A stretch of DNA of 64,000 nucleotides from positions 69,039 through 133,038 of the forward strand of contig LLEV01000006.1 of the NCBI GenBank assembly GCA_001567515.1, written 5' to 3'. How positions within the stretch are numbered: position 1 is the stretch's first letter; every line of letters starts with the position of its first letter. The notes beneath the pieces are model-generated. The model saw only the letters and a program-made list of their open reading frames with translations, was not told the DNA's origin and made no database searches. The position numbers were made by a program, and so were the translations under genes. Source of the DNA: Microgenomates bacterium OLB22 (GTDB lineage Bacteria > Patescibacteriota > Microgenomatia > UBA1406 > HO2-37-13b). This document shows, piece by piece, positions 10,938 through 64,000 of the stretch.

Positions 10938-11088
10938 CCCACCTTATTTATCAGAACTGGAGCTTCGCAGTAACAGCTTGTAGTACCAGACTCGGGTGGG
11001 GCCTCTGGCATATTGCATGCTACGCCCCACTTGCGTTTGGCAACACGCTGTAAACTTCTTTCGCTAGGTTCTGAAAATAGGTTGGGGG
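10938..11088 (+). repeat. Family-1 structured repeat, copy 3
   Basis: Same architecture as copies 1 and 2. The inner helix 10973-10981 with 11043-11051 carries two compensatory base-pair changes relative to copy 1. The ATGCTA arm pairs through G-U. Confidence 0.85.
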
Positions 11089-11105
11089 ATGAGAGGGTTC
11101 AAGGC

Positions 11106-11133
11106 AAAAAAAGCCGGCAGACTATGCTGCCGG
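11106..11133 (-). terminator. Rho-independent terminator of the MIF-like gene
   Basis: Read on the minus strand: stem CCGGCAG/CTGCCGG followed by T7. The stop codon (11122-11124) lies in the loop. Confidence 0.6.
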
Positions 11134-11517
11134 AGGTAGGTCTGATGGTGCGCAGATCATCTTCCCACCGAACCAAAATGACGTGCCAGGTGGCATATCG
11201 AAAAATGTGATGTCGAGATTTGTTTGTAGTCCGTAATCACTCAGGAAGGTCTCGATCAGATTGCCTAGTGCTTTCTTCTGCTCGACAGATCTACCCGCAT
11301 TCCATAAGATAAACACATGGAGCCCATGGCTTTTATCTTTTGTTCCATCTTGTTTGAATACCATCCAGGTCCCCGGAATCAAGTGAAGCTCGACATCAGC
11401 GGCTTGAGTACCTGAAACTTCAGCCACCTCTTCATAGAATTTGGCTATCCAACCAGCATCTCGACCAAGATAGGTGCATTCTGACTCAGGAATATTTCCA
11501 ACAAATATGCAAGGCAT
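11122..11517 (-). CDS. Tautomerase-superfamily protein, MIF/D-dopachrome tautomerase-like
   Basis: From the internal Met the protein starts 'MPCIFVGNIP' (Pro-1 hallmark). 'LHLIPGTWMVFKQDG' and 'LDITFFDMPPGTSFWFGG' parallel the MIF blocks 'VHVVPDQLMAFGG' and 'VYINYYDMNAANVGWN'. The track ORF start at 11544 is probably too far upstream. Confidence 0.55.
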   Translation of the reverse strand: MPCIFVGNIPESECTYLGRDAGWIAKFYEEVAEVSGTQAADVELHLIPGTWMVFKQDGTKDKSHGLHVFILWNAGRSVEQKKALGNLIETFLSDYGLQTNLDITFFDMPPGTSFWFGGKMICAPSDLPPAA

Positions 11518-11636
11518 TTCAAGCTCCTTTACGATGAGAGTCAATGTGCTGAAGGGAAGTATACTACTGAAAAGTCAAAACTCAAAGATCAATCCACCAG
11601 CTGGCAGATCAAAACCGAGATTAGACTTAAAAACCT

Positions 11637-13964: not shown

Positions 13965-15521
13965 ATGGAAAGATACGTATACCGCAACCCAGATGACACA
14001 GCGGGAGGAAGTGGCGATGAGTCTACAAAGTCACTAAGACTCCCTAAACGTGAAGAGCCAAAGCCCGCAAGCCTAGCTCTTCGATATATTGACGCCCCTA
14101 AGCCAAGAGGCGTAGATGATGCTGTGCTTCGTCGTTTGGAATCAGCACGTGCCACACTCCAACTAGTCGGAGAAACACGTCTCGGGGCAAATACCGCGAT
14201 ATTCAACTCTGGTGAGCTCGTACAAGCAGTTGACACTATGGTACATAAAGGAGTTATTGAGGCTTTGCAGATAGATCCAGAAGCCTATGAGCTACTATTC
14301 AATCTAGCAACACATGACCCTTTGATCAAAACTGCGTTAGTACGACTTCAAGAGCAGTTGGGTACTTATGATGTCCCTATCATACCCGCTCCTGACCTTG
14401 ATGAGGAAACTCTAAAAGAACAAGTGGGTCGAGTAAAAGGCGATCTTCTTGCAAACAATCCTCTTGTTTTGGCAGCTGCTCAATCATCGGTACATGGCAT
14501 GCTCCATCTCGTCCATCAAGCTGAAGGAATGACACGAGAACAGGCTGAAGAGCTACTTGAAGGTGCACTAGATGCCATAACTGATCTTACTCCGACGCCA
14601 GGGAAAGCAGACTCTTACAAAGGTCCAAAAGGGACCGCGCTGCTTGCTTGGCACAAATTGCGAGGAGGATACCCAGTAGATCACTATGACTTTGGAAGAG
14701 ACACCTTGTTCCCCCCAGAAGTGCTTGAATATGCTCAAGATAATCCACTGTATAGGGCACTTGTTTATAAAATGATAGCAATTTCAGCAGCAGTGATTAG
14801 AAATCAGGAACAGATCGAGCAAGTATCTAAGGCATTAAAGGCTCAAGTCGATGTAGTCTTCAATCCATATGATAAAGCTATAGCCAAAGTTATCGATGCG
14901 TATACAGTTGAGGTGGCATATAAAGAAAGAGACGCTTCGGGTAAAGAAGTGATAGTCAAAAGAAAAGTTCCTCTAGATGTCGCTCTCTCTCATCATGGGG
15001 ACAGAGTATTGGCAGCTCGAAGAGCTCTTGAAGGTCAGGATGCTCAATTGATAAGTGGTCAAGTGATAGATCCTAAAAAAACTAAGGAAATTGGAAGAAG
15101 TTTGAGGGATGCTACTAGTCACAGGCAGAGATTAGCAGAACAAAAGTCGAAGGCTGATGCTAGACTCAGGACCATTATTCTCGGTGAAATGGCAGACACC
15201 AAAGCGCTAGAAGGACAACAGAGCCTACTTGATACTGCCAGACGAGATCTTGGAAATTTGCTTAGAGAGGGACTCTTCACTTCAGTAAGTATGGTGGCTG
15301 TTGGAGCAGAGTTGAATGACGCTTATGTACGACTTCGTACTGCTCGTCAGGCACTCAGTGAGTCTCAGGTACAACAACAGGTCGCCGAAAGTATGCAAAC
15401 AGTCAACCTTCGTATAAAAGGGATGGTAGATGATGCTATGGTACAGACTGAGGAAGCCCAAAGAGCTCGTGAGATTCATGAGCGCGCTCGACGTCAGATC
15501 TCGGCCTCAAGCCAAACATAA
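13965..15521 (+). CDS. Hypothetical, largely alpha-helical/coiled-coil protein
   Basis: Long ORF (track 13923..15521; the first plausible Met is 'MERYVYRNPDD' at 13965). Charged helical C-terminal third. No recognisable family. Confidence 0.5.
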   Translation: MERYVYRNPDDTAGGSGDESTKSLRLPKREEPKPASLALRYIDAPKPRGVDDAVLRRLESARATLQLVGETRLGANTAIFNSGELVQAVDTMVHKGVIEALQIDPEAYELLFNLATHDPLIKTALVRLQEQLGTYDVPIIPAPDLDEETLKEQVGRVKGDLLANNPLVLAAAQSSVHGMLHLVHQAEGMTREQAEELLEGALDAITDLTPTPGKADSYKGPKGTALLAWHKLRGGYPVDHYDFGRDTLFPPEVLEYAQDNPLYRALVYKMIAISAAVIRNQEQIEQVSKALKAQVDVVFNPYDKAIAKVIDAYTVEVAYKERDASGKEVIVKRKVPLDVALSHHGDRVLAARRALEGQDAQLISGQVIDPKKTKEIGRSLRDATSHRQRLAEQKSKADARLRTIILGEMADTKALEGQQSLLDTARRDLGNLLREGLFTSVSMVAVGAELNDAYVRLRTARQALSESQVQQQVAESMQTVNLRIKGMVDDAMVQTEEAQRAREIHERARRQISASSQT

Positions 15522-15530
15522 CCTTAACTT

Positions 15531-16697
15531 ATGTCCAAAGAAAGCGCCATTTTTCAGCTAGAGAAGCAGCTGCGAGAAGGGCGTGGTAGTACAGTGGAAG
15601 AACAATTGCGTCGTAGTGTCGAGGCGGAATTTGATATAACTCCGCGTCTCTCCGAGCGTATTCCCATTACTGATTTTTCTACTAGCTCTACTCCTTTTGC
15701 CCCTACTGAATCACTTTTCGCACTTGAGAGGAGTGGTTCAACCGTAAGAGCCCAGAAGGGGACGATATTCAAACGTCTTGCTCTGGCAGCTGGAGTTGGT
15801 GCAGCCCTCTTTATCGGTTCCGGCTATACTGGTGATACCAACGCAGACGACGGAGCGACTAAAGAACGGATTGTACTCGAGCCACGCGTTATAGGTGACG
15901 GAGAACCCTATGTATATACAAATGATGGCCCTGAGGAGGTGAAAATAGGTCCGACGCCTACTGTTGAATTCCTCGAAAGGGAAGATTCTCCAACACGGAT
16001 AGATATCCCCTGGCTTCCTCGAAACATAGCCTTTTGGAACGCTCTTATCGAAGAGAGATACTCATTTTATGGCATAGATCCTGATCTAGGGGCTCTTATC
16101 CAGCTCATGGAGTCAGGTGGATCTCCTGATGCGGAGAGTGGACAGGCAAGTGGTCTTATGCAGATAGCCCCCGGCACAGCTAGAGGGTTTATTCCACAAC
16201 TCGGTATGTCCAGGACTGACCTTTCCGATCCCGAGGTCAGCGCGACCCTTGGAGCGTGGCATAGCTACACTGATCTCCAGCACGCTGGCATTAGTGATGG
16301 GTCGGACAATAATTCCCCAGACAAAGATACCCACTGGAAGCGCACAGTAGGTCTTGCAGGTGCCTCATATAATGGTGGGAAGGGAGCGGTAGACTACTAC
16401 AAGAGGAATGGACGTTTCCCGGACAATACCCAGACAGGCATCTATCGTGAATTTCTGGAGACAGTCTGGCCACTGCGCCATGATGCGAGTGTGACGTATC
16501 CTAGAATTGAGGTGATCTATAATGAGATCTCGCTGAAATATGGCGTGAATGCCGCATTGAGTTACCTTCAGAAGAAGGCTGTAAAGCAGCTCGATGAGCG
16601 TTATCCAAATTGGCGCACCGAGTCCTATACTCCACTATATAGCACATGTGATATGATCTCCAATCCCGCTATCCTCGCGCTAGGGAAGTGCAAATAG
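15531..16697 (+). CDS. Membrane-anchored lytic transglycosylase (SLT domain)
   Basis: 'LMESGGSPDAESGQASGLMQIAPGTARGF' carries the catalytic E-S and GLMQ motifs of SLT/GH23. One TM segment, 'LALAAGVGAALFIG'. Confidence 0.7.
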   Translation: MSKESAIFQLEKQLREGRGSTVEEQLRRSVEAEFDITPRLSERIPITDFSTSSTPFAPTESLFALERSGSTVRAQKGTIFKRLALAAGVGAALFIGSGYTGDTNADDGATKERIVLEPRVIGDGEPYVYTNDGPEEVKIGPTPTVEFLEREDSPTRIDIPWLPRNIAFWNALIEERYSFYGIDPDLGALIQLMESGGSPDAESGQASGLMQIAPGTARGFIPQLGMSRTDLSDPEVSATLGAWHSYTDLQHAGISDGSDNNSPDKDTHWKRTVGLAGASYNGGKGAVDYYKRNGRFPDNTQTGIYREFLETVWPLRHDASVTYPRIEVIYNEISLKYGVNAALSYLQKKAVKQLDERYPNWRTESYTPLYSTCDMISNPAILALGKCK

Positions 16698-20228: not shown

Positions 20229-21906
20229 ATGCCGCTTTTATGTGGGTATTTTGCGGTGCGATTTAGGTCGCCAACAGTTATTGGCTATATCATCGCTGGC
20301 TTTTTTATAGCCTTACTTAAAGAAGCTGATGTCTCTTCAGTTGTATCTTTCTTTGCTAATTTAGGACTCTTACTGCTGCTTTTTACATTAGGACTCGAAT
20401 TGGACATAACTACTCTGCGTAGACATGGCCGGGTGGTCGTATTAGCGGGCTTATTACAGGTAGGTCTTACTACAGTTGGAACGATATGCCTTTTGGCATT
20501 TTTTAACTTTAATCTCACTACTGCATTGTTACTGGGGTTTGCTTTGTCACTTTCTTCTACAGCGGTTGTGTCCAAGATCATACAGGAGCGAGGAGATGAA
20601 CACACACTACCGGGTCAGCTGGCTATAGGTATCCTCATTCTGCAAGACATAGTTGCAATCCCAGCTATACTTGTGATCTCATCATACAACCCCGATCTAG
20701 CCAAGCCTGATCTCTTCATAGCAGTATCTGCCTCCGTGTTGAAATCGATAGGTATCCTAGGCCTTATGTACGTATTTGGGGAGCGCGTCATCCCACAAGT
20801 CTTTGAAAAACTAGGAAAGGTCTCACGAGAGCTTATGAACTTGTTTACTATTGTATTTATCTTTCTACTTGTAGGGATATTTCGTTATTTAGGTCTTTCT
20901 ACGGGACTAGCTGCATTTTTCTGCAGGACTCTTGATCGGACAAACGGCACAGCACTATCATATCTTTTCCCAGATACGCCCACTACGAGATGTCTTTGTA
21001 ATACTATTTTTTGTCTTCTTAGGGGTAAGTACCAACCTGGGATTATTAGCACATCAGTGGGTGAGCATAGTCATATTTTCCCTCTGCCTGGTACTTCTCA
21101 AGATAGCCATCATGATCGTTGTGCTCACTAAGATGAAATATAACTCTCGTACAGTTTTCTCAGTTGGGCTCTTTTTGTCCCAAGTTGGAGAGTTTGCCTT
21201 TATCTTGTTAAGGGAGGGGCATATGAAAGGGCTTATCTCGGCAGATGCCATGGCATTTGGGACAGGTGTGAGCTTGATGACTCTGTTAATCTCACCGTAT
21301 CTTATTCAGCACCATTTGTTTTTATATAGACACGTACGTAGTATCATAAAAAATCATGTTCCTTTGCTAGAGGAATTCATCGCCTATCGTATTGATAGAG
21401 AGGGGAGTGCCTCTCGAGGTATAGCTACAGCGCATACCGATCATGTGATCTTGTGTGGGTATGGACGGGTAGGGAGCTATGTAGGAAGGGCCCTTACACT
21501 CTCGAATGTGCCGTTTTGTGCTATTGATTACAATCAGCACATAGTACAAAAGGAGAGACAGGCTGGTACGGATATCATATACGGTGATCCAACGAGTGTC
21601 GACATACTCGATATGGCAGGAGTAAAAGAGGCAAAAGCTCTTATCATCGCTCTTCCAGACAATTTTTCTCAAGAACTAGTCTTGCTTTCAGCCAGGAAGA
21701 AAAATCCAAAGATCATGATCTTTGCACGTGTTAGGCAGAAGGATGAGCAGCTGAGGCTAAAGTCACTTGGAGCAGATGTAGTCATCCAACCTGAGTTTGA
21801 GGCGGCACTTTCACTCGTGAAGAAAATTATGCTTGCAAAACATATGAATGCCGAGGATATCCAGGGTAAGATCAAACGCTTAAAAATAGAACATGGTATG
21901 GCCTGA
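20229..21906 (+). pseudogene. Kef-type cation:proton antiporter with C-terminal RCK/TrkA-N domain, frameshifted
   Basis: Transporter TM helices in 20229..21131 continue in 20932..21906 ('AGLLIGQTAQHYHIFSQIRPLRDVF'). Rossmann-like 'HVILCGYGRVGSYVG'. A single extra base at or beside the T5 run 20916-20920 separates the frames. Confidence 0.7.
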
Positions 21907-23734: not shown

Positions 23735-23990
23735 GAGTATCTCTGCTTTCTCGAGGTTGTTTTTTTGCTATCTGATTTGTAGGCTCTATCTTAAGTGCCT
23801 TTCGGTAAAACGTAGCAGCTTTCTTGTAGTCATCCTTTTGTAAATAAGCAAAAGCTATCCCTAATAGGGAATCGATGTACTCGGGATCCTGTTGAATAAT
23901 TTGTTCGTGAAGATTGACAGCCTCATCCCAACGTGAGTCGACTGCCGCTTCTATGGCTTTCTCGTAAAGTTTTTCTTTGTGTAGGTTCAT
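23709..23990 (-). CDS. Small TPR-repeat protein
   Basis: Only the part from 'MNLHKEKLYEKAIEAA' (ATG at 23990) is credible. 'AFAYLQKDDYKKAATFYRKALKIEP' is a TPR signature. The upstream part of track ORF 23709..24431 is antisense to yebC. Confidence 0.55.
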   Translation of the reverse strand: MNLHKEKLYEKAIEAAVDSRWDEAVNLHEQIIQQDPEYIDSLLGIAFAYLQKDDYKKAATFYRKALKIEPTNQIAKKQPRESRDTHEERYKEH

Positions 23991-30606: not shown

Positions 30607-33066
30607 TGATGTATGTGCCTATGAAATCGCGACGTGGTGAGATCGCTACAACTCTTACACTTATTTCCCTGCTTCTGGCAGGTATTGGTACGTTGGTTGG
30701 GGCACGTGTGACGGTCCAACAACGTCAGCAGACACAAACCCTGGCAGCAGGAGCTAGTGGTTGTGGGATGAGCTGTAGTAAAAACTCAGATTGTATGCGA
30801 TCAGTTACTAACTCTTCAGGTGAGGAGGTCACTTTGGCATGTGATATGCGTGTTAAAAAATGCCTTGCTGCTTCAGGAGAGAGAGATCGATGTGATGATG
30901 TCTCCGGTGGTGGAGGTAGCGGAGGTAATTGTGGTGTTGACTGTCGCAATGACCGGGATTGTAATAATACAGATGCAACTGATTCGAGCATTCGGCTCCA
31001 CTGCGACTTCACTATAGGGAGAGCTGCTGGTCGAGGAAGATGTCAAGGATTTCCCAACGGCAAACAGTGTCCCAACATACCGACACCAACGTCACGATTT
31101 GCGGGTGGAGGGACCACTGGTGGATCAGGGGGGCTGAGCCCCATCCCATCTGGTTTCAGACTCCCATCAGGAGACCCCTTCCCCACAGGAGCTCTACGTG
31201 GAGGGACGCCTGGTCCTACCTTTGTCGCAACTACACAGGCACCACAGACAGGCGGGGGCACGTCTTCTAGTCCTCAGGGTAATAGGTTTAGCACTGCAGC
31301 CTTGCGATGTGGTGGGACATTCCGTGTTGAGATAGATCCAGTTATAGACCGTATCCTTATCCGAGGAGGTAGTGGTCAGTCATATGTTCTAGGTAATGCC
31401 GATGAAGTGAGTGGTAGTGATACCGGTCGACGCTCCCCTGTCGGGTATCGTATGTGGATGAGCTTTAGTAGACAACAAATAGATAACATCAAAGTTGACT
31501 TTAGTGAGGGGGTACAGCGCAATGGTCGGTCGAGCTGTCTATCTAGGTCTACGTAGTGGTGGCCATCCTGATCCCGATCTAAACCAAGATGCCGCTGTTG
31601 ATATGTATTATTTCTCCTCTGTCCCGGCATTTGTATTTGATGGAACACCAAAGACTATAGAGCTTGAGTATCACGTACAGGGTAATAGAAGTGGCCGTGC
31701 TGGCACCCCTGAGTATTTCCAGCAGTCTATATCTACTAACGGATGCTCAGCATCAACCACAACGATCATCACAACACCAAGTGCAACGCAGACGCCCCCA
31801 AGGACACCTACACCTTCACGGACAGCGACACCTACTGCAGAAACTGCCCCACCCCCTAGTCCCTGTTCTACTAATGTACATTTCCTTATTGATGCATCTG
31901 AGACTATGCGTCAGTTCATTGAGCCTTCGATGACTAATCTGGTGGCTGCCATAAACGACTATGCACGGGCAGACTTTGCCAGAAATGATAATATTACCGT
32001 CACCCGACAATTCTTTTATAGAGACGTTGAGGGCTCTTCATCCCCTAAGAGTGCGAGGACTATCACTGATGCCGATTTTGCATTTCCGCGAAATAAGCAC
32101 TGGACCAATATTCACGATGCCCTGCAGCAAGGGATCCGTGGCACCACTGTGTTTATCTCTGATGGTCTTCCGTCGGTGCGCAAATATGCGCTCCAAGAAA
32201 AAGCCTGGTGTGTTTTTGGCAACGGGCCTGCGATGAGTGGAGGTGGTTCAGATAAAAAAGCAGACGGATGCGAGCCAGATGCTAATGTGAGTGGTAAATT
32301 CAACAATAATCGTCCATCCTGTTCGCCTCAATGTACTACAAAGACGTACTCAGACGCATACAGAGAGTCGAAATCAGGCTCAGCACAATTTAGCGTGTTT
32401 GTGGCAACTCCAGATGGGGATAGAGGTTTTATGGAGTCTGTTGCCAACGAGACTATAAACTTCTCCGATCTTCCAAATAAGCTTCATGAGATATTTAATG
32501 CTGCTTGTAACCGACCTGCTCAGGGGTTCTTACCTACCGGAAGAGGCACGGGGTCAGCATCACGTAGTGGATCTTCTCAATCATTTATGTCGTCGTTTAC
32601 CATGCAAAATAATTCGTCACGAACGCTATCCGGGATCAGGACTGAGGTGTGTTCAGGGTCAGGGAGCTGCGTCACCTCAAGTCAGCCAGTCCTACTTGGC
32701 CCAGGCCAAAGCTCTCGTGTATCTAGTTTAGTAGGCAATGTGCCACTACAAGGCACCTTCAATGTTAGAAATACACTCCTTTTTGCTGATGGCGGCGAAG
32801 AACAAGGGTCATCACGAACACTTTCAAGGACCAACGGTGTTCAGTATTCTCTGCAGTTGCAAGATAACGGTACTAGATCTACAGTCAAAACCTATACAGA
32901 GGCTTCTGATGTCAATGGTGATGGCGAGGTAAACACGCTTGATGCTGCTACTTGTGCTCGCAGCTATGGAAGTGCCGATGTCCGTTGTGACATCGTGTCT
33001 GATGGTACGGTAAATGCGCAGGATAATGCAGCTCTAATAGGAAATGCAGGAAGTTCAACACAATAA
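30603..33066 (+). pseudogene. Surface-operon gene 5: about 820-aa anchored adhesin (2 Cys modules, Gly-rich region, vWA, dockerin), split by a G5 frameshift
   Basis: 30603..31556 has the TM anchor. 31495..33066 lacks one and overlaps it by 62 nt. Deleting one G from 31508-31512 gives '...VDFSEGYSAMVGRAVYLG...'. MIDAS-like 'LIDASET' at 31891-31905. Dockerin 'DVNGDGEVNTLD...DIVSDGTVNAQD' at 32908-33066. Confidence 0.6.
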
Positions 33067-53963: not shown

Positions 53964-54350
53964 TTATGAACTAGAATTCTTGTTAGCGTCTTCTCTGGGT
54001 TTTACTTTACGTGCGAGGTGAGCGGCAAGCTCAAGACGATGACGGATACGTTGTGATGCCTCTACAGCGATGGCTGCTGGGGCCCAGGGGACGACTGCCC
54101 CACCGAGGTAGATGAGGCGATCTATTATGTCGAGCTTGTCCCCGGTATAAAGATCCTTCCCAATAAGCGCATTGACGAGCGCGATCCCGTCGCCTATACC
54201 ATAGGCGCCAAGTGACCATGCGCTAGTCCCGTACTCTAGCGCGGTGCCGATGATGAGTCTGCGTGCTGACTTACCCACTTTACCAAAAAAGTCCTTTTTT
54301 ATTTTCTTCATCGGTTCGGAGTCGAGATTCTCTACTAGCTGCAAGAGCAT
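53964..54350 (-). CDS. Hypothetical small protein
   Basis: 128-aa ORF. The likely start is 'MKKIKKDFFGK' at 54311. It overlaps the upstream ORF. Confidence 0.4.
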   Translation of the reverse strand: MLLQLVENLDSEPMKKIKKDFFGKVGKSARRLIIGTALEYGTSAWSLGAYGIGDGIALVNALIGKDLYTGDKLDIIDRLIYLGGAVVPWAPAAIAVEASQRIRHRLELAAHLARKVKPREDANKNSSS

Positions 54351-54611: not shown

Positions 54612-55196
54612 TTAGCTACCTTTCCTCGAAACATAAGGGTTGTCTTTAATATAAAAACGATATGAAGCATCTTGGGCTTTTGAGAGGCCAACTCTCTTAC
54701 CCGAGATGATCTCCTGCGGGATAAATCCATCATCGATAATAGAGATGACCGAATTGGGTTCAGTAATGTCTATTCCATCGAGTTCTGTCGTGATTCGAAG
54801 TGCTTGAGACAGTTTCCCCGGACCACTAGTCAGATCTACGAGTCCTTCTTTTCCTCGAAACTTTCGCATCATATCTATGCCGTCAATTGGCTCCAGAGCA
54901 CGTATCAAGACACTGCTAGGGATATCTGCTTTCTCTACTACGATGTCGAGACAATGCTGCATATGAATGCGATGGACATAGGCATGTCCTGCAGGTAAAA
55001 AGAGTGACGTATTTCTCTTTGTCTTTCCAATAAATGAGTGAGCTGCCTCATCGATGAAAGCGACATAAGCTTCCACTTCGACAATCCGCCCTGAGATAGT
55101 GCTGCCATTTAACTTTCTTACCAAGATCTTTCCGAGGAGGTCTGGTGCTACTGCCAAGGGGCTTCGATTATAGAAGTCCGCTCTTAGAAGCCTCAT
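54612..55196 (-). CDS. mpg: DNA-3-methyladenine glycosylase (Mpg/AAG family)
   Basis: 'FYNRSPLAVAPDLLGKILV', 'IVEVEAY...DEAAHS' and 'GPGKLSQALRIT'. Confidence 0.85.
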   Translation of the reverse strand: MRLLRADFYNRSPLAVAPDLLGKILVRKLNGSTISGRIVEVEAYVAFIDEAAHSFIGKTKRNTSLFLPAGHAYVHRIHMQHCLDIVVEKADIPSSVLIRALEPIDGIDMMRKFRGKEGLVDLTSGPGKLSQALRITTELDGIDITEPNSVISIIDDGFIPQEIISGKRVGLSKAQDASYRFYIKDNPYVSRKGS

Positions 55197-56953
55197 TTCT
55201 GTTGTACTTTATAAAGTTGGTTAAAAAGACTTTTTGGGTCCTTGGTCAGACTAGTATAACTACCTGATTCCACGATCCTACCATCTTTGAATACATGAAT
55301 CACATCGACATTTTTGAGTGTGCTAGTCCGGTGTGCGACAAAGACAAGTGTTTTTTGAGTTAGCTCACTTTCCAGTCCAGCCTGTATTTTTGACTCTGTC
55401 TGTGAATCGAGTGAAGATGTCGCTTCGTCAAAAATGAGAATATCTGGATCTTTACAGATGGCTCGTGCTATCCCGACACGTTGACGCTCACCTCCCGATA
55501 GATGGTACCCTTTTTCGCCGATGAGCGTATCGAGTCCTTGCGGAAGCTTTTCTAGTACCAGTTCTAGTTGCGCGATTTGTATGGCTTTTGTAAAGAGATC
55601 TGGTTTCACATTTCTCATCAATGTGATGTTATCCCTAAGCGATAGATTGAACATCTCTGACTCTTGAAGAACAATTCCCAGATGTTTAGCTGTACTTTCA
55701 TAGTTGATATCTTCAAAACGGGTAGACCCGATGGAATATGTTCCGCTTGATAATGGGTACAAACCCATAAGTATCTTTGTGAGTGTCGATTTGCCACTTC
55801 CGGTCTTTCCGACGATACCAACTTTTTGATGCCTCTGTATACTCAGGGTCACTCCACTGAGTCCACCTCTTCCCTTTTCTTCTGATTGATAGTGAAACAC
55901 CCCATCTTGCAGCGTAATAGTATCCCAGTTGGTGGGAAAATTTTTAGTGCCTGTATGCAGATTATCTTTTGCCCATAGGATGGACATCATACGCCCGATG
56001 CCAGATTTTGCGGTGATCATCTGATCATATACATCGAGTATGTCTGCGGATTTTCCTGTCAATTGTTGCCCGTAGTTAAAAAAAGTTATGATCGAACCAA
56101 TAGTGATGATCTGATGAGTCACATCATGCCCTATCAACAAGAGAAATGCTCCCATAGTTACGCCATTGAGTGCTTGAAAGAGTTGCCACTTTTGTATCCC
56201 CACTCTCCTGATCTTCATTTCGTACTCTTTGCGAATCAGCTCTGTCTTGGATATTCCTGCACCAAAACTTTTGTGTGCTCCTGCAGATTTGATCGCAAGA
56301 ATGTTGCCTAATCCCTCTACATAGGCTCCACTAGCCTGCTCGATTGCTTGGTTTTGTTCTTCTTGAAGCTGCCTGGTAGCTAAATAAAAGTGTCGTAATA
56401 CAAAAATGAAGAGAATGAGATAAGCGAGGACAAATATAACGTATGCAGGTTGAAGTACAAAAAAGACACCAATGATACCGACAAAACTGGCCAGTGCAGA
56501 ATATACTTCATTATTAAATACTCTGGTGATATAGAAAATCTGATTAGTCCCCGTCTGAATACGCTGAAATTTGTTCCCAGTGCTCTCCGCATCATGCCAA
56601 CTCAATGAAAGTGACATTAGTTTGTCGAAACCCCTTAATCTGGTGTTATAGGCAACGGTTGTCTGTATGTTGCCCATGAGTCTTTTGACAGTGAGTCTGA
56701 AATATGAAATAAAGATCTGCAGAAATGTGATGAGTCCAACCAGTAGGTAAAATGGCAAGAGGCTACTACCAGCTGTGTAGTTGGTAAAGAAATCGATGAT
56801 CTTACCCGTGAGAAATGGCGTCAATACAGCATTGAATTGGAATGCGATCAGAACTATGGAGAGCAGAATGTACTGCACTTTTTGTTTGCCTAGCAAGGAG
56901 TATATGGAGCGAATAAGATCGATCCAAGAAAATGAAGGTTCCTTTTGGGACAT
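55193..56953 (-). CDS. ABC exporter, fused permease/ATPase (MsbA-like)
   Basis: Six-TM N-terminal half, Walker A 'GKTGSGKST', signature 'LSGGERQRVGIARA' and Walker B 'ILIFDEATS'. Confidence 0.9.
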   Translation of the reverse strand: MSQKEPSFSWIDLIRSIYSLLGKQKVQYILLSIVLIAFQFNAVLTPFLTGKIIDFFTNYTAGSSLLPFYLLVGLITFLQIFISYFRLTVKRLMGNIQTTVAYNTRLRGFDKLMSLSLSWHDAESTGNKFQRIQTGTNQIFYITRVFNNEVYSALASFVGIIGVFFVLQPAYVIFVLAYLILFIFVLRHFYLATRQLQEEQNQAIEQASGAYVEGLGNILAIKSAGAHKSFGAGISKTELIRKEYEMKIRRVGIQKWQLFQALNGVTMGAFLLLIGHDVTHQIITIGSIITFFNYGQQLTGKSADILDVYDQMITAKSGIGRMMSILWAKDNLHTGTKNFPTNWDTITLQDGVFHYQSEEKGRGGLSGVTLSIQRHQKVGIVGKTGSGKSTLTKILMGLYPLSSGTYSIGSTRFEDINYESTAKHLGIVLQESEMFNLSLRDNITLMRNVKPDLFTKAIQIAQLELVLEKLPQGLDTLIGEKGYHLSGGERQRVGIARAICKDPDILIFDEATSSLDSQTESKIQAGLESELTQKTLVFVAHRTSTLKNVDVIHVFKDGRIVESGSYTSLTKDPKSLFNQLYKVQQK

Positions 56954-56971
56954 TTAGCTATTGTAACACGA

Positions 56972-57445
56972 CTATTTATTGAAATACTCTTTCATCGCTG
57001 ATGAAAATGGTTTTCTTTCCTCAGGCGTGGCTACCCGTGAGTCGCTCATATTCGCGTGAAGCTCATCACCTTCAAATCGCGGGAAGATATGGAGGTGGTA
57101 ATGGAAAGCATGTTGGCCACTGGCTGGCTCGTTATTTTGAAGGATCATGGTCCCATCACACTTTCGTATCTCTTTCAACGCCAGAGTTATCTCTTTGGCG
57201 ATATTCATTATTCTATTCCCTTCTTTCTCAGGAAGATCATAGAGATTTTCGTAGTGGGTCACGGGAAAGACGATGATATGTCCGGGATTGTTTCCAATGA
57301 ATTTGGAGTTTATGGCAGCCATGACTAGGTCATCTCGATAAAAGATGTCCGCCTGCTTCATCATAGTAGCATCACTCTCTATGCCCTGTATTGCAAGACA
57401 AAGTGGGCAGTTGTAGTTGTGCGGAGCATGGTTGTGCATAAGCAA
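56972..57445 (-). CDS. HIT-family nucleotide hydrolase
   Basis: Histidine triad 'HYHLHIFPR'. Confidence 0.8.
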   Translation of the reverse strand: MLMHNHAPHNYNCPLCLAIQGIESDATMMKQADIFYRDDLVMAAINSKFIGNNPGHIIVFPVTHYENLYDLPEKEGNRIMNIAKEITLALKEIRKCDGTMILQNNEPASGQHAFHYHLHIFPRFEGDELHANMSDSRVATPEERKPFSSAMKEYFNK

Positions 57446-57522
57446 GAGTATATGGTTTTTTATCTAAATATCCACCCCAGTGTTACATCTCGTATCTATG
57501 CCTTTACCCGGACTGCTGATTG

Positions 57523-57796
57523 TTACTTTCTATAGACCTCATCGTGAGTTCCTAAATCTACAAAGTACGCTGTATCTTCCGTGATTAAAACATAAACCAT
57601 TCGAAGATCTTTATTAATTGAAACACTCCACTGATGGGATAGATTACCGATTAATTTATGTGTTCTCAAGGAGGGATGTTTTTGGATTTGATTCGAATAG
57701 GGTGATTTGTTTTTGTATCCGCGTAACTAGCTTTTTGTCTTTTTTATTCAAAAGGAGGATTTTTTGTTGGACTTGAGGAGAAAGTTTAGCTTTCAT
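57523..57796 (-). pseudogene. RelE/ParE-superfamily (YafQ/RelE-like) toxin, frameshifted
   Basis: The ATG at 57796 overlaps the antitoxin stop. 'MKAKLSPQVQQKILLLNKKDKKLVTRIQKQITLFESNPK' is followed in the +1 frame by 'HPSLRTHKLIGNLSHQWSVSINKDLRMVYVL...LGTHDEVYRK'. There is an extra base in the run at 57679-57683. Total length is 274 nt (3n+1). Confidence 0.7.
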
Positions 57797-58046
57797 TCAA
57801 CGTTTGAAAGAAATCAGAGGCATCGACAGCCTTATCTAATTGCTTCAATGCCTTTTGAGTATTCTTTTGTACTCTGTCGGAAGCGCGGAAAACAGGATAG
57901 TTCTCACTATCTACTTCCTTCAGAATCAAGTATTTGACAAATTGAGTTACTGGAACACCAAGTAGAGAAGCCTTTGACTCCAGATGATCATTCAACTGCT
58001 CCGAAAGGCTGATTTTTAGTTGTATTTGTGGACTTTGTGTCTGCAT
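57786..58046 (-). CDS. Ribbon-helix-helix antitoxin
   Basis: 'IQLKISLSEQLNDHLESKASLLGVPVTQFVKYLI' fits an RHH fold. It lies directly upstream of the toxin and overlaps it. Confidence 0.6.
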   Translation of the reverse strand: MQTQSPQIQLKISLSEQLNDHLESKASLLGVPVTQFVKYLILKEVDSENYPVFRASDRVQKNTQKALKQLDKAVDASDFFQTLNES

Positions 58047-58126
58047 ATGCCTATATAGTATCTAAAATATACCTATTTGTCAATCATACGAAGTATAAAA
58101 GTCCTGATAAGTGGCATTCCTTGTAA

Positions 58127-58450
58127 TCATTTACTAATCTTTTTTGATACTGCGCCTACAAAAAGTCTATATGCAAGTCTATCTTCTTTTTCAAAGATGA
58201 TAGGAGTCCCCAGATGTCTCTGACAGTTTGGACACGTTAGTTGTGGGATGTCCCCAAGAATATCTGTCGATTGGAAGGTCAAGCCATTTATCCGGTCCAG
58301 ATACATCCGTTTGAGTATCCCGGGGCCGTCCTTTTGGTAGAAACACAGGTGCTCACCACAGCTAGCACAGCTAATATCGAGGATTCGTGAGGATCCTCCC
58401 CGGACTTTTTTATATCTATCATTCTTGATAGAAATATCTAGCTTTGCCAT
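58127..58450 (-). CDS. Small CxxC...CxxC zinc-ribbon protein
   Basis: Independent ATG at 58450 ('MAKLDISIKN'). 'CASCGEHL' and 'CPNCQRHL'. It is fused to the GNAT ORF in the track only because of a frameshift. Confidence 0.5.
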   Translation of the reverse strand: MAKLDISIKNDRYKKVRGGSSRILDISCASCGEHLCFYQKDGPGILKRMYLDRINGLTFQSTDILGDIPQLTCPNCQRHLGTPIIFEKEDRLAYRLFVGAVSKKISK

Positions 58451-58466
58451 GTGTCCTCTTAAGAAA

Positions 58467-58984
58467 TTAGAGCAGGATTTGATACCGCAACTTATGTAAC
58501 TCAAATCCGTCTCTATTATCTGTTTTAGTAGCTCCCTCAGATTCCCATCCCTTTTTTCATACCACCTTCGAGTCTTTTCATTTGTATCGAGGACCCACAG
58601 TGTCGCTTTTTTATATCTTCGCTCACGAAGATAGTTACAACCCTCCTTGAGCAAGGCAGAGCCTGCTCCGTGCTTCATATGGTCAGGGTCAATGTAGATT
58701 GACCAGATCTCGCCTGTCTTACTATCCATATCATTATCACGGCACGGACCGACGCTACAAAAGCCGATGACCTCCCCATCTTGTCCTGCGACGAAAGTCC
58801 TGGTCCCCGGTATGGGCGCAGCTAAGATCTTTTCCCAGCGTTTTTTCCTCCGCGCAATAGATAGGCTAGCGAGGTAGTCATCGGGGATCTGTCCTTTGTA
58901 CGCATGTTGCCAGGTCCTGACATGAATTTTCGCAATTTGCTGCGCATCTTTTGGTAATGCTGGTCTCACAGTTATGTCATCCAT
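58467..58984 (-). pseudogene. GNAT-family N-acetyltransferase, frameshifted near the C-terminus
   Basis: 'ITVRPALPKDAQQIAKIH' and 'VIGFCSV...HGAGSALL'. Adding one base to the T6 run at 58552-58557 restores 'WYEKKGWESEGATKTDNRDGFELHKLRYQILL' with a stop at 58467-58469. Confidence 0.7.
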
Positions 58985-58996
58985 GGCGTGATTATA

Positions 58997-59551
58997 TCAA
59001 TTCTCCTTGTTAGGAGATGTTTTTTTATTTCCGACCTTTATTACCAATGGACAGTAGCGCAGGCGTATTCGGAGGCTTTTGATACTTTCCTCGAGCTTCT
59101 TCTTACTCATGCGTATTCTCTTCCCCACTGCAGGCTCCAGGATGGTGAAGGTCGCCGGTGTGGCTGACTCGATGATGATGTAATGCGGGCTGTGGTCATA
59201 GTTCCCAAGTTGGTGAGTGTCTATTTGAACGATGACAGGATAGCTCAATTGTTCGAGGAACTGTACCCTGACCTTTTGATGGATAAATACGAGGTTTTTT
59301 GAGTCATAATGAGTCTTTAAAAAAGAACAAAAGTACGCATTATCTACGTAAATAGTGATCCTCCTAGAATACTGTCTTTGAAAAGCTGTAACTATCCCTG
59401 CTACATATCCCCCATGCAGATCGAGCAATCCCTCAAAGGGAATCTCCTTCTCTTTTTCAGTCGAAGGTACGATTCCGTGGCATTGTAAAAGGCAGACTGG
59501 TAGACAGCTCTGTGATGTTGTTTGTTTATAGGGTTCCATGAGGCACATCAT
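58997..59551 (-). CDS. Papain-fold cysteine peptidase, C39-like
   Basis: 'YKQTTSQSCLPVCL' (Gln/Cys) and 'NYDHSPHYIIIE' (His) are arranged as in C39-type peptidase domains. Tentative. Confidence 0.4.
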   Translation of the reverse strand: MMCLMEPYKQTTSQSCLPVCLLQCHGIVPSTEKEKEIPFEGLLDLHGGYVAGIVTAFQRQYSRRITIYVDNAYFCSFLKTHYDSKNLVFIHQKVRVQFLEQLSYPVIVQIDTHQLGNYDHSPHYIIIESATPATFTILEPAVGKRIRMSKKKLEESIKSLRIRLRYCPLVIKVGNKKTSPNKEN

Positions 59552-59631
59552 ACTTTTTTAGATTTTATATACAACAGTAGTTCCAGGCGCTACGTTAGCC
59601 TGAGTTTGTTATAATAGGTAGTAAATCTCCA

Positions 59632-59702
59632 GCGGGATTAATTTATCGGTAAAATGCCACCCTTCCAAGGTGGATAGACGGGTTCGATTCCCGTATCCCG
59701 CT
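59632..59702 (+). tRNA. tRNA-Gly (anticodon TCC)
   Basis: Acceptor GCGGGAT/ATCCCGC, anticodon stem-loop CCACC-CTTCCAA-GGTGG, T arm ACGGG-TTCGATT-CCCGT. Confidence 0.88.
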
Positions 59703-59766
59703 CCCTTTCTTCGCTAAAGCTACGGATGACTCACCTACAAAATAGTTGTTAACGAAGGCCACCCCC

Positions 59767-62391
59767 CTAATGGCTACTTTGTGAAATCATTGTAACGAGT
59801 TCTTGGTCCGATTTGCTAACGGGGATGAACCTACTTATAATTGTAGCAGGCATTGTGTAACTCCCCATTTTAATTCCCATGCCAGCATGTCCCGCGTTTC
59901 CAGCTGCAGCATCTTCGTATTGTCCACTAGGGTTACGGCTACTAGGTACTGTAACACTTTCTCCCCCTGCCCCCCTTACTAGCTGAATCCCCATTGGATC
60001 TGCCACAATTAGTTCGGCAAAAGTATCAAAAAATGTGTTCATGTTTAGATCAGCTCTATGAAGTTGTGTATAAGTAGGCTCTAAAAAGAGCACGGGTCTT
60101 CCGTCATGCATTTGAACTAACTTTGCAATTGACCTCCCCACACTTGCTTCTAACAATTCCTGTTGGGGGATAGTGTTTTTAACTTCTTCGAAACCTCTTG
60201 CGTCTATTTTTTGCCGAGTTTCTGGAGATAGCTTATTTAGGTCTATCAGAAAAATAGCCTTTGTATGTGCATCGGCAACATACCCCGCAAGAGCCTTGTT
60301 CAGCTCTGGCCTTCCCTCATAATTCTGACATGATCTACAGCCAATTGGATATTTCCCGACTTGAAATAGTATCTGTGGGTTGTCTGTGATAATCATGGCT
60401 AAACGACGATTCCCACCTATGTTTTCTACCATAGAGAGAGCCGTTTGGAGATTATCAATGTCTTGAAGAAAAGTAAGATTATCTTTGAAAAACTTTCTAA
60501 GACCATCAATCACAGATGTGATAGACTCACTTTGTTTATCCGCTCGTTCTGTAATCATATCTTTACCTATAAGTTGAATATTTAACTTACTCAACCTATA
60601 CAAATCAATTAGAGTTTTAAGCTCCTGTCTTTTTTGATAAAACTGTCCACTATTCTTTAGCTGCTCTTTGTCTAAACCACATCTCTGGAAGATATCGGAG
60701 TCCATAGTCTGAGCAAAAGATTCTTCAATATTTCTTACTGTGTCAGATAAACTTTGAGCGATTTCAGTACTCAACAATGTAGTTGCTTCAACTGTAGTGG
60801 CTTTTAACTCCACAGCAGCATTCATTGCTGATTGGATTACCAAAAACTGCTCTTTACTAAGAAATTGTTCTAGAAATCTTAGGGCGTCGAAAGTTTTCTT
60901 GCCCACTTGGACATTTTGTCCCGCTGTGAACACACTAAGTATTTGTTGGAGCCTAGTTACACTAGCGGCCCTTATGATACTATCAATCCTTGCTATGTCC
61001 TCTTGCAACAATTGAATTTCGTCAGCTAATATTTGCTTTCTTTGTTCAGGGTGTGCAACTAATGATTCGTGAGTTCTTGCGAGCCTCTCTTGAATAAATT
61101 TGTATTTATCAGAATCATCGACATCAGGATTATAGATATGACCTTCGAGGATAGCCCGCTCGATTTGACCAGCTATATGATCTGGCAGGTCCCTAGGGGA
61201 ATTTGCAATCATGATGACACCTAACTCTGCAAAATGGTCAGCTTTCCATACATCGAGCTGCTTTTTTGTGAGATGCCCTACTTGACTACTTACTATTCGA
61301 TCACTCAAATTATATCTCCATTTTTTCCAACCATCATAAGTCGGAGGATCCATGCCCGCAACCATCTCAGCAACTAATCTTAGCGTAGTACCATATCTCG
61401 ATGACGCCATCTTGGAAGCATAAACAAAAATTGGGTCAAGATTACCCCAATGTTCCCAAAGTTTTTGTATCTTCTCGGCATCTATTGCATCATTTGGCAA
61501 TACTTCTCTTATTTTATAGACTACGGCTTCTTTAAATGATGCATTTAGTTGGTCTAATGAATCAACTTGCGCATCCAAAATGGCCAATACCCCTGGACTG
61601 TCATGCTGCCCTAGCTTGTTATCTATAGTAGTAAGAAAACATACTGTTTTGAGCAGCCGTGCCATATGTTCAGCTCCTTCTTGACTTACAAAATCAATTC
61701 TGGCTAACTGATCTACGACCTTTGCCAGCATCTGCCTGTTCGCGCTTAAAATGTTTACAATACCATACAAGAGTTCTTCCTTGAAAACTGTGCCTTTTGT
61801 AACTGAATACAAACTGTTAAACTTTGCTACTAACTCCTCATTGCCCCCAGTAAATTTCCATAGCTGCATAAATGTATCTTCTGGAATAGAAGGACACAAT
61901 TCCTTATGTGTATGAGCTATTGATCTTCCGTCTTTAGTAAACATCTCGAGAGCATCATCTAGTTGCTTTCGTGATCTTGCCCGTATGTCAGCACTTGATA
62001 TTCTACAAGTAGCTTGAAAAAATTTGAAATCCTGCCAATCAAAGTCCCTAGAATCCATACTTAACTTAGATTTAATCCATGCCCTCATGTTTTTAGGGAA
62101 AAAGTCTTTTTTTGTTTCTATAAGATTTCGAATAACAAAGACTTTTACACGAGAATCGATATCAGCGGTCAAAATTAGTGAAAATAGTGCATCGTTTCCC
62201 AGGGGGTTATCTAGCTGCATCAACGTCCTTAATGCTAATTCTTGCTCTTGTGTAAATCCAATTCCCCTTCTGCCCTCATCCTCATCTTTACCTGAGCTTC
62301 TCCTTTTAAGTACTCCTGCCAAATGGTCAATAATCTCACCATCTCCTCGTTTTGCCAACTTGGCTAATGCTAAAGCGAGTGTTTTATCCAA
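59767..62391 (-). CDS. Large hypothetical protein (874 aa)
   Basis: Uninterrupted ORF in a low-GC block, mostly helical. 'GKYPIGCRSCQNYEGRPELNKALAGYVAD' is the only Cys-containing motif. No family recognised. Confidence 0.55.
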   Translation of the reverse strand: MDKTLALALAKLAKRGDGEIIDHLAGVLKRRSSGKDEDEGRRGIGFTQEQELALRTLMQLDNPLGNDALFSLILTADIDSRVKVFVIRNLIETKKDFFPKNMRAWIKSKLSMDSRDFDWQDFKFFQATCRISSADIRARSRKQLDDALEMFTKDGRSIAHTHKELCPSIPEDTFMQLWKFTGGNEELVAKFNSLYSVTKGTVFKEELLYGIVNILSANRQMLAKVVDQLARIDFVSQEGAEHMARLLKTVCFLTTIDNKLGQHDSPGVLAILDAQVDSLDQLNASFKEAVVYKIREVLPNDAIDAEKIQKLWEHWGNLDPIFVYASKMASSRYGTTLRLVAEMVAGMDPPTYDGWKKWRYNLSDRIVSSQVGHLTKKQLDVWKADHFAELGVIMIANSPRDLPDHIAGQIERAILEGHIYNPDVDDSDKYKFIQERLARTHESLVAHPEQRKQILADEIQLLQEDIARIDSIIRAASVTRLQQILSVFTAGQNVQVGKKTFDALRFLEQFLSKEQFLVIQSAMNAAVELKATTVEATTLLSTEIAQSLSDTVRNIEESFAQTMDSDIFQRCGLDKEQLKNSGQFYQKRQELKTLIDLYRLSKLNIQLIGKDMITERADKQSESITSVIDGLRKFFKDNLTFLQDIDNLQTALSMVENIGGNRRLAMIITDNPQILFQVGKYPIGCRSCQNYEGRPELNKALAGYVADAHTKAIFLIDLNKLSPETRQKIDARGFEEVKNTIPQQELLEASVGRSIAKLVQMHDGRPVLFLEPTYTQLHRADLNMNTFFDTFAELIVADPMGIQLVRGAGGESVTVPSSRNPSGQYEDAAAGNAGHAGMGIKMGSYTMPATIISRFIPVSKSDQELVTMISQSSH

Positions 62392-62410
62392 TCCTGTATT
62401 ATCTTCACTT

Positions 62411-63016
62411 TCAAATGCGAGAATTTTTTTCTTTTATTGCTGAATAGCGCTCGTTATTTGGTTTGTCCCTCAATCCCATCGTCGTCAACAATTCTATTGT
62501 CCGCTTCTTGGCATCTGTTGTCCCTGCTTTTTGAAGCGTTGTTAGTACCTCTTGATAATATTCATAGCAGCCGAAGACAGAGTAGATTCTTTTATATTCT
62601 TCTAGAGAGTTATGCTCTGGATTGGAGAAGTGCTCATCAAGCTGTTCAGAGGTGATCCCAAATGGTACGGCTTTTGAGAAGTCTTTATTGTCAAGTATAT
62701 GTATCTGAATGAATTCTTGATCAATCTCAACTCCTGTATGTTGAGCTATTACACCGAGTTTATGATGATATTCTTTCCCATGAGAAAGACAGTATGCATA
62801 CATAGACATCACAAATTCTCTATCAAGTTGTAGGGGAACCCCTGTTTGCTGAGAAAGTATGGCTATTTGTTCAAGAAAATGTGCGGCTTCATCGTCGTCT
62901 TCGTACTGGCCGACATAATCGATATCATCCTCATCGTTAACATAGTTGGTACTGTAAGGAAACTGACTCGTCCTGACAAATTTTTCAAACAGTTCCTTAT
63001 ACTTACCTTGTAACAC
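62411..63016 (-). CDS. Hypothetical protein (201 aa)
   Basis: ORF 19 nt upstream of the 874-aa gene. Acidic N-terminal region. No family recognised. Confidence 0.5.
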   Translation of the reverse strand: MLQGKYKELFEKFVRTSQFPYSTNYVNDEDDIDYVGQYEDDDEAAHFLEQIAILSQQTGVPLQLDREFVMSMYAYCLSHGKEYHHKLGVIAQHTGVEIDQEFIQIHILDNKDFSKAVPFGITSEQLDEHFSNPEHNSLEEYKRIYSVFGCYEYYQEVLTTLQKAGTTDAKKRTIELLTTMGLRDKPNNERYSAIKEKNSRI

Positions 63017-63020
63017 CTCT

Positions 63021-64000
63021 TTAGAAGGAGGCGTTTTTTACTATCTCTTGAAAAGCCGCAACATGTTCCGCTCTAAATTGATCACCTGCAAATAGTTCAG
63101 TATAGCGTGCCTGAATGATTTTTGGACTTGGTAAAGTCTTGCTTTCCTCTAAGACAAGTTCAAACGCATCTTTCCTATTTTTCACTTCGCCAAGCAATAT
63201 TTTGGCGTATAGTACTTGTGCTTCCTTTTCATCTATACTAAATGCAAAGTTAAATAGCGCTTGTAGTTGTCTTACCATATCAACGTCTCCGCCAAGCAGT
63301 CTCTGTGTGTAAATCTGGTGCAGTTTGTTCTCAATATCTGCTTGTGTTATCTGTAGGCCTTCTTGTTGGGCGATTTCTACCATTATCTGCATATCCGGAA
63401 TGACACCAGAAAAGTTCTCTACAGTCGCAGTGTTTGTAGATAAAGAATGTGGTAGTTGATTATCATCTACAATAAACTGCAAATACACAGTTTGCATCGC
63501 TTCTGGGGAAGGTAAACCATATCTCTGTCTTAATACATCCCATCCTTTTTTACGCTCTCTATTTCCTTCCCTATTTACATCTTTGTAAATCGCTTGATCA
63601 AATGTTAGCGAATAAGCCAAATCAATCAACCGTTGAGGGGGGGGCTCACCCATATAGCTTTCATACCAATCAAATAAATCAATTATGTCATTACAAAAGA
63701 TATCACTCGTCTTATGACGTACTAATATTTGCTCCATCTTTGGGGCTACTAGTTCTGGTGTCAGTTTTACTTCGATACCTGTAGCTTCTTGAATGTATTC
63801 AACAACTTGAGTGCCAAGCCCTTTGCGACCTAGGTGATACAATAATATTTGTTGGACCATTTCCTCAGGCATTCTTATATTATTTTGTTCGATAAATTGC
63901 GTAACTCCTTTATCTCCATGCCTATACCAGGTAGAACTCGTAAACCAGTCTAATACTCTTTGTTGCAGAATATCTTGCGTAGGAGGAACACCAACTACTG
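63021..64000 (-). CDS. Hypothetical protein, 5'-partial (frame open to the window edge)
   Basis: The frame of track ORF 63021..63872 has no stop between 63873 and 64000 ('VVGVPPTQDILQQRVLDWFTSSTWYRHGDKGVTQFIEQNNIRMPEE...'), so the gene may start outside the window. Confidence 0.5.
   Translation of the reverse strand, partial: VVGVPPTQDILQQRVLDWFTSSTWYRHGDKGVTQFIEQNNIRMPEEMVQQILLYHLGRKGLGTQVVEYIQEATGIEVKLTPELVAPKMEQILVRHKTSDIFCNDIIDLFDWYESYMGEPPPQRLIDLAYSLTFDQAIYKDVNREGNRERKKGWDVLRQRYGLPSPEAMQTVYLQFIVDDNQLPHSLSTNTATVENFSGVIPDMQIMVEIAQQEGLQITQADIENKLHQIYTQRLLGGDVDMVRQLQALFNFAFSIDEKEAQVLYAKILLGEVKNRKDAFELVLEESKTLPSPKIIQARYTELFAGDQFRAEHVAAFQEIVKNASF

Follow-up and report, generated by a model that had tools for sequence, protein, structure and literature searches.

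Orphan reading frames beside tRNA-Gly(tcc) in Microgenomates bacterium OLB22 read as pieces of one giant accessory gene, its frame most likely broken by sequencing errors

What is encoded by the large orphan reading frames that lie beside a tRNA-Gly(tcc) gene in Microgenomates bacterium OLB22? They stand at the end of a 64,000-nucleotide (nt) stretch of its genome (contig LLEV01000006.1, positions 69,039 to 133,038, assembly GCA_001567515.1), which is called the window here and to whose forward strand all coordinates refer. An initial annotation took the three open reading frames (ORFs), of low guanine-plus-cytosine (GC) content, for three or more separate co-directional genes forming a multi-protein system, perhaps defence-like or effector-like, on a tRNA-linked island. 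The ORF sizes, the gaps of 19 nt (between the ORFs of 874 and 201 amino acids (aa)) and 4 nt (between the 201-aa ORF and the piece that runs off the window), and the tRNA-Gly gene beside the block were reproduced exactly by the ORF and ARAGORN calls. However, the genes do not start 65 nt after the tRNA gene; they lie on the minus strand and converge on it, with the stop codon of the 874-aa ORF 61 nt from its 3' end and no terminator-like hairpin in the 61-nt spacer. Judged from the repaired reading frame and from homologous proteins, the three ORFs are best read not as a multi-protein system but as fragments of a single giant ORF that runs towards the tRNA gene (Table 1).

At the DNA level, both ORF boundaries are +1 frame changes within homopolymers, and the junction sequences are GTAAAAAACG (A6, 63034-63039) and GAAAAAAATT (A7, 62424-62430). 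When one base is removed from each run, 1409 codons can be read in one frame, with no in-frame stop, no indel outside homopolymers and no further lesion. If the breaks were placed at random, the chance that both would fall in A/T runs of at least 6 bases (about 63 nt, 1.5%) is about 2e-4. After repair of break 1, ..FQEIVKTPPSKEVLQGKYKELF.. aligns with ..FQNMAEVPPTNEMLQGKYREIF.. of the related protein P0008, and after repair of break 2, ..IKEKILAFESEDNTGLDKTLALA.. aligns with ..TKEKLMSFVEEKSTPINKSLGEA.. of the same protein. When the repaired N-terminal 645 residues were compared with P0008 by BLASTP (residues 189-645 to 6-459, 39% identity, E = 4e-116), the alignment was one colinear stretch, gap-free across both junctions.

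Among 5.8 billion clusters, only about 20 are close relatives of the 874-aa ORF; most are 1200-1850 aa long and come from metagenome bins of the Candidate Phyla Radiation (CPR)/Patescibacteria, and the ORF is 45-55% identical, over its full length, to 1200-1850-aa CPR proteins. Eighteen of 21 relatives are single ORFs of this size that span all three pieces, in each of which a single polypeptide covers first the end of the off-window ORF, then the 201-aa ORF and lastly the 874-aa ORF; upstream of each annotated 'start' in OLB22, the homology to these proteins carries on in another frame. None of the 21 close clusters has genes split at the OLB22 break points. Because the repaired frame is stop-free and colinear with single proteins of the relatives, the 874-, 201- and 525-aa 'genes', on this comparison of sequences, are pieces of one giant ORF.

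Table 1. Positions in the window of the giant-gene pieces, their breaks and conserved regions, and the neighbouring features
Feature	Position	Strand	Remarks
Fragment 1	63021..64000, continues off window	-	325 codons in window; annotated as 525-aa UZ21_OP11001000454 (P0169)
Fragment 2, 201-aa ORF	62411..63016	-	GTG start; matches gene B residues ~150-345 of relatives
Fragment 3, 874-aa ORF	59767..62391	-	TTG start; annotated as UZ21_OP11001000452, 100% match to OLB22 protein
Break 1	63034..63039		T6 on + strand, A6 in gene; one surplus base
Break 2	62424..62430		T7 on + strand, A7 in gene; one surplus base
Middle conserved region (residues ~260-480 of 874-aa piece)	60952..61614	-	Invariant Trp/Tyr/His columns in alignment
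Conserved C-terminal domain (residues ~650-830 of 874-aa piece)	59902..60444	-	Core common to 221 representative clusters
tRNA-Gly(tcc)	59631..59705	+	ARAGORN; convergent with giant gene
Toxin-antitoxin pair	57523-58046	-	RHH-like antitoxin 57786-58046 and split RelE/YafQ-like toxin
Accessory and housekeeping mix	54612-59551	-	C39-like peptidase, GNAT and Zn-ribbon, HIT, ABC exporter, MPG DNA glycosylase
PT-TG (Pre-toxin TG) small ORF	53964-54350	-	E = 3e-6; ~5 kb from giant gene

In relatives, the corresponding gene (gene B, 1213-1221 aa) is preceded at a distance of 10 nt by a second orphan (gene A, 1188-1202 aa). Of gene B, the 874-aa piece covers the C-terminal two thirds. In the off-window ORF, the first ~188 residues in the window match the C-terminal end of gene A, the first ~173 of them aligning to its last ~170 (E = 3e-12), and the part after them matches the beginning of gene B, which places the A/B junction at about 63411-63479. 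Because the frame runs stop-free from the A homology into the B homology, genes A and B read as fused in frame in OLB22. The block makes up the 3' 4.2 kb of this giant gene, of which at least 1609 codons can be recovered, out of a total that is probably above 2000. Since P0169, the 525-aa protein, is annotated to start inside the A homology, at about residue 838 of A, at least one further break must lie upstream, outside the window. In the relatives, the ratio of nonsynonymous to synonymous substitutions (dN/dS) is 0.14 for B and 0.16-0.21 for A, and such low values indicate purifying selection and, therefore, functional proteins.

Two further loci of the family are recorded here in their own right. 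The closest homologue (L001, positions 1-240; 55% identity, Patescibacteria JTS-AC425) is truncated on its 5' side, and its homology starts right after the stop of an ORF ending in ..EYRFNHR.., an ending which we take, by eye, to be typical of IS1595-family transposases. One 25-kb contig (L013, 1-545, and L017, 312-5072) carries two family members ~6 kb apart, namely a 1586-aa single gene and an A+B pair, with a MacB-type exporter operon between them.

Why, then, is the frame broken? Each of the four verified breaks in the window consists of one surplus base in a T-run of the plus strand, and the two outside the giant gene affect ordinary genes. The gene of a Na+/H+ exchanger that also carries a TrkA_N domain is cut into two plus-strand ORFs that overlap (20229-21131 and 20932-21906) and match positions 5-238 and 243-373 of PF00999; removal of one base from the T6 run at 21007-21012 gives a 558-aa exchanger matching positions 5-373 of the 375 in PF00999 (E = 1e-45). 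The RelE/YafQ toxin on the minus strand is split into ORFs of 46 and 48 aa by one surplus base in the T5 run at 57679-57683, and one deletion repairs it to 90 aa, covering positions 4-86 of the 88 in YafQ_toxin, with the YoeB and ParE models matched end to end. At four other sites (5551-5557, 23760-23766, 31508-31512 and 54285-54290), a one-base deletion joins long ORFs, which belong to a membrane protein, a TPR protein, a Dockerin-domain protein and the PT-TG protein. These four breaks could not be verified, and a Pfam search with three of the four merged proteins (all but that at 31508) gave no match across the junction.

The OLB genomes come from a study of the Olburgen anammox reactor that used Ion Torrent data, and its authors reported 'persistent frameshifts' (PMC4821891). 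The breaks resemble what is known from Ion Torrent and 454 assemblies, both in being single-base errors in A/T runs of 5-7 bases and in producing adjacent out-of-frame ORFs colinear with one homologue, with several genes hit. Because two other genes of the window are broken alike and the assembly derives from Ion Torrent data with documented frameshifts, the surplus bases are most likely uncorrected homopolymer errors. The homology-guided frameshift repair applied by the authors would be expected to miss a gene without database relatives.

The strongest competitor, which we consider unlikely although well worth weighing, is that both frameshifts are real and that the giant gene of OLB22 is a decaying pseudogene broken by homopolymer slippage. 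Copies in the family are indeed degraded elsewhere (L001 is truncated by an insertion sequence (IS), and L007 retains only a 322-aa C-terminal ORF), the start of the 525-aa protein inside gene A homology implies the additional upstream break, and breaks are denser in the giant gene (two of 10 A/T runs of at least 6 bases) than in the rest of the window. A higher density, however, would also be expected for an orphan gene passed over by homology-guided repair; against decay, 1409 codons are free of in-frame stops and of indels outside homopolymers, and breaks by one surplus base in T-runs also affect the transporter and toxin genes, in data with a documented frameshift problem. It is far less probable that programmed +1 ribosomal frameshifting, or transcriptional slippage on A-runs, regulates the full-length product: RNA polymerase slips on A-runs in some bacteria and both sites are A-runs of 6-7 bases, but runs of this length are short for slippage to be efficient, unrelated genes in the window carry the same lesion, and the relatives are single-frame at both positions, so that the sites are not conserved, unlike those of the dnaX, prfB and IS kind. 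Hardly to be credited is the proposal of three or more separate co-directional genes in a defence-like or effector-like system, for although TTG, GTG and ATG could serve as start codons of the ORFs and the 4- and 19-nt spacings resemble those of an operon, the boundaries fall midway in continuous homology to single proteins that extends upstream of each 'start', no relative is split at these points, and PADLOC gave no matches.

Is this giant gene, with its frame most likely broken by sequencing errors, a native part of the genome? Its base composition is deviant. The GC content of 59767-64000 is 39.3%, as against 44.9% in the remaining window, and lies below that of all 555 equal-sized windows (mean 45.1%, standard deviation 1.8, minimum 41.6). 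The initial annotation was right that the block is low in GC and deviant, and only its hand-counted figure of about 35% was off. At third codon positions, the GC content (GC3) of the pieces is 0.31-0.36, compared with 0.42 +/- 0.045 in 34 other genes of the window, and at second positions (GC2) it is 0.29-0.36 as against 0.41. Since GC3 and GC2 are both shifted, the deviation is real and reflects synonymous usage as well as amino-acid content.

The cassette keeps its own composition across hosts. In relatives its GC content is 38.6-39.2%, with flanks of 46-48% (locus L009), 38-40% (L011) and 32-35% (L013), and its GC3 is 0.28-0.33 as against host values of 0.49, 0.32 and 0.24, respectively; amino-acid identity between the B proteins of L009 and L013, whose hosts are 12-14 GC points apart, is 85.7%. 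The neighbourhoods are non-syntenic. They contain ribosomal protein and IF3 genes at L009, an Xre-type helix-turn-helix (HTH) gene with AbiEi/AbiEii at L012, a MacB-type exporter with DUF2130 at L013, and Eco57I, T5orf172, HD and Fic/RhuM at L015, and several flanks are rich in restriction-modification, Abi, Fic, toxin-antitoxin (HicA) or IS genes or fragments. Five of about 11 independent loci have a tRNA gene 31-530 nt from the family gene (Gly in OLB22, and Trp, Ser, Asp and Gln), and in four of these five it lies upstream and is co-directional; fewer than one such locus would be expected from the tRNA density of the window. Because of this composition held across hosts, the variable accessory neighbourhoods and the frequent tRNA adjacency, we conclude that the giant gene is accessory and moves horizontally. 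The earlier view that the genes are not core was thus borne out, by the scarcity of close relatives (about 20 in the 5.8 billion clusters) and by a different neighbourhood in every genome.

Genomic islands and transfers within Patescibacteria have been documented (PMC12455944), and these islands share with the present locus a deviant composition, a patchy spread mostly within Patescibacteria and restriction-modification, Abi or toxin-antitoxin neighbours. The unit here differs from them in that it seems to consist of one or two giant genes, with no integrase, transposase, attachment (att) site, phage or plasmid link found. Could it nevertheless belong to a classical integrase-borne island at tRNA-Gly, with the integrase and the far att site beyond the window? 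This would be compatible with a mobile giant gene, and the start of the low-GC block 61 nt from the tRNA 3' end, the departure from the host in GC and GC3, the five tRNA-adjacent loci and the commonness of islands in Patescibacteria (PMC12455944) speak for it. We nevertheless find it improbable. The tRNA-proximal sequence in OLB22 is the 3' end of the giant ORF and holds no integrase, and the DNA common to relatives consists of the giant gene or genes only. No integrase Pfam family was found in the flanks (up to 10 kb) of eight related loci, and the complete cassettes of L009 and L011 have no direct repeat involving the neighbouring tRNA gene. The five adjacent tRNAs, moreover, have five different identities, and four of them lie upstream of the gene and point the same way. 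Of the tRNA-linked island first suggested, the tRNA adjacency and the deviant GC content have held; no integrase was found in the visible part and no tRNA direct repeat in two relatives, the far border in OLB22 lying beyond position 64000. A 57-nt direct repeat of 93% identity (14223-14279 and 16590-16646) was seen downstream of the cassette in L009.

On the other side of the tRNA gene, the genes that had been described as accessory (GNAT and Zn-ribbon, a C39-like peptidase and a toxin-antitoxin pair) were confirmed, although the match of the C39-like peptidase is weak (21.6 bits vs a cut-off of 22). The GC content of the genes at 54612-59551 is in the normal range. PT-TG, found in a small ORF further along this stretch of accessory appearance, is a polymorphic-toxin-associated module.

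What kind of protein would the repaired gene encode? The statement that no motif could be named stood up to formal searches: Pfam, NCBIfam, PADLOC and PHROGs gave no match above noise for the three pieces, gene A, or long and distant relatives, and with each of the three pieces PADLOC-DB v2 yielded no family at E ≤ 1, so that the defence-like character suggested for the block found no counterpart among known defence systems. Sequence searches of the PDB with the whole-family profile and the C-domain profile gave no match, Pfam searches with 33 diverse C-domain sequences matched no curated family, and no description of this giant-protein family was found in the literature.

Along the protein, a repeat array, a helical solenoid, a Trp/Tyr-rich middle and a C-terminal alpha/beta domain of ~180 residues follow one another. 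Two-helix units, each ~36-45 residues long and with a 'TG[IV]xP' turn, build up gene A and the initial ~350 residues of B, and the 201-aa ORF carries two such 'TG[IV]x[P/I]' helical repeat units. In the AlphaFold2 model of the 874-aa piece (predicted local distance difference test (pLDDT) 59.7 for the whole), residues ~40-300 and 440-590 are helical with a pLDDT of about 80, and residues 311-429 fall below 50; Foldseek with the whole model gave generic helical or solenoid matches only. The N-terminal two thirds thus resemble solenoids of the HEAT, ARM and TPR kind in being predicted all-helical, with repeating two-helix units, but at the thresholds used the 'TG[IV]xP' unit fits none of the repeat families in Pfam. 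A helix-hairpin-helix was also considered for the repeats and was rejected by eye, the spacing or conservation being wrong. The middle region is rich in invariant Trp, Tyr and His, and some distant relatives match this region only.

An exhaustive profile search of 1.84 billion representatives recovered 221 clusters (at 50% identity), 140 of them at E ≤ 1e-10, whose common core is the last ~180 residues. This C-terminal domain ends at most 60 residues from the C-terminus in 155 of 158 proteins, preceded by N-terminal parts of 0 to 2000 residues. Its signature is TDxP..GKYPxGxxSCQNY..YVxDAHxK..aRxixK..EPtY..SRNPxGQYED, and 19 positions are 85-100% conserved across 141 domains (D670, P672, G679, P682, C688, Y691, L701, Y704, D707, K711, R753, K757, E771, P772, Y774, S818, G823, Y825 and D827). 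These near-invariant residues suggest a catalytic or ligand-binding site. Several known sites were compared by eye and rejected for wrong spacing or conservation, namely the R-S-E of ADP-ribosyltransferases, the HKD of PLD, the CX5R of phosphatases, the Cys-His-Asp of papain or transglutaminase, and PD-(D/E)xK. Distant members with this domain are single genes in ordinary Gram-negative genomes. In two non-CPR genomes, such a member adjoins a gene of ~330-347 aa with faint HTH_24/AsnC matches (L018, 6806-7849; P0170 locus, 10550-11542), and this gene may be a conserved partner of distant C-domain members.

The fold of the C-terminal domain gives a weak lead. With an AlphaFold2 model of the C-terminal 315 aa (pLDDT 57.9, low confidence), Foldseek returned almost only GNAT, N-acyltransferase and N-myristoyltransferase folds, in the PDB and BFVD (best PDB E = 9e-3, template modelling (TM) score 0.41-0.48), and the order of secondary-structure elements in this model fits beta1-alpha1-alpha2-beta2-beta3-beta4-alpha3-beta5. 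These are the points of likeness to GNAT enzymes, including the toxins AtaT, TacT and KacT; in contrast to them, the Cys/Asp/Arg/Ser set of the domain is not the GNAT signature, and the domain ends a protein of more than 1200 aa. No Pfam GNAT match was obtained for the window protein or for the 33 diverse C-domain sequences. Two other family proteins (P0014 and P0015) carry a true GNAT domain (PF00583, PF13508, PF13673) at residues ~905-1050, between the helical region and the C-domain.

As for where such a protein might act, the N-terminus of the relatives (gene A starts MRERFFE...) shows no signal peptide or transmembrane segment by eye, which lends no support to the effector-like role once suggested. 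The family also differs from polymorphic toxins and effectors in having a conserved C-terminus and a variable N-terminus, and no conserved small (immunity) gene follows the giant gene in the relatives examined. With low confidence, we picture a cytoplasmic scaffold-plus-enzyme protein, in which the repeat scaffold would bind a macromolecular partner and present it to the C-terminal domain, and in which this domain, with its near-invariant Cys, Asp, Lys, Arg, Glu, Ser and Tyr and a possibly acyltransferase-like fold, might act as an enzyme. Its role would perhaps lie in conflict or in some other accessory function rather than in housekeeping. GNAT toxins target tRNA, and a bolder combination can be imagined, to which we attach only a slight probability: an undescribed acyltransferase-like enzyme domain with a Cys/Asp/Arg/Ser site might ride on a self-mobilising, integrase-free cassette that lands beside tRNA genes, and the 'TG[IV]xP' array might recognise a nucleic-acid or translation target, e.g., tRNA. 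If that were true, episymbiotic bacteria would have in this family a new class of protein for conflict or for interaction with the host.

Taken as a whole, then, we think it fairly probable that the locus holds one giant gene, fused from A and B, with a frame broken by likely sequencing errors, and that it is mobile and accessory; that its product would be a scaffold-plus-enzyme protein we hold with much less confidence. Several points weigh against parts of this picture. The 5' end of the giant gene and the far border of the low-GC region fall beyond the window. The artefact was judged from the consensus sequence, in which a real mutation at homopolymers would look identical, and the degraded copies L001 and L007 show that decay does occur in the family. 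Part of the low GC content is due to amino-acid composition, and, besides the missing integrase and tRNA-gene repeats, searches of phage, plasmid and IMG/VR collections gave no homologue. On the structural side, the models are poor (pLDDT 58-60) and every Foldseek E-value is above 1e-3, hhalign of the C-domain against a home-made 8-sequence GNAT profile gave a probability of 0.3%, and the Q/RxxGxG/A pyrophosphate-binding motif of GNAT is absent after the presumed beta4 (..LFLEPTYTQLHRAD.. in OLB22), where the family consensus reads EPtY...nk.d, with no glycine motif.

For the OLB22 genome, these results mean that a single gene should replace the hypothetical proteins with locus tags ...452, ...453 and ...454, and probably others upstream of them. 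Ordinary genes in the public assembly still contain homopolymer frameshifts, which makes it an unreliable basis for counting genes, calling pseudogenes or compiling statistics on orphan genes. Beyond this genome, a family of giant proteins is newly defined, comprising 221 clusters, whose C-terminal domain is sharply conserved and whose helical repeat is of an undescribed kind. Although purifying selection acts on it, the family moves from one CPR lineage to another and retains its own base composition. Since CPR genomes are about 1 Mb in size, a cassette of 7 kb is a large investment, and its role could show how episymbionts deal with their hosts, with phages or with each other.

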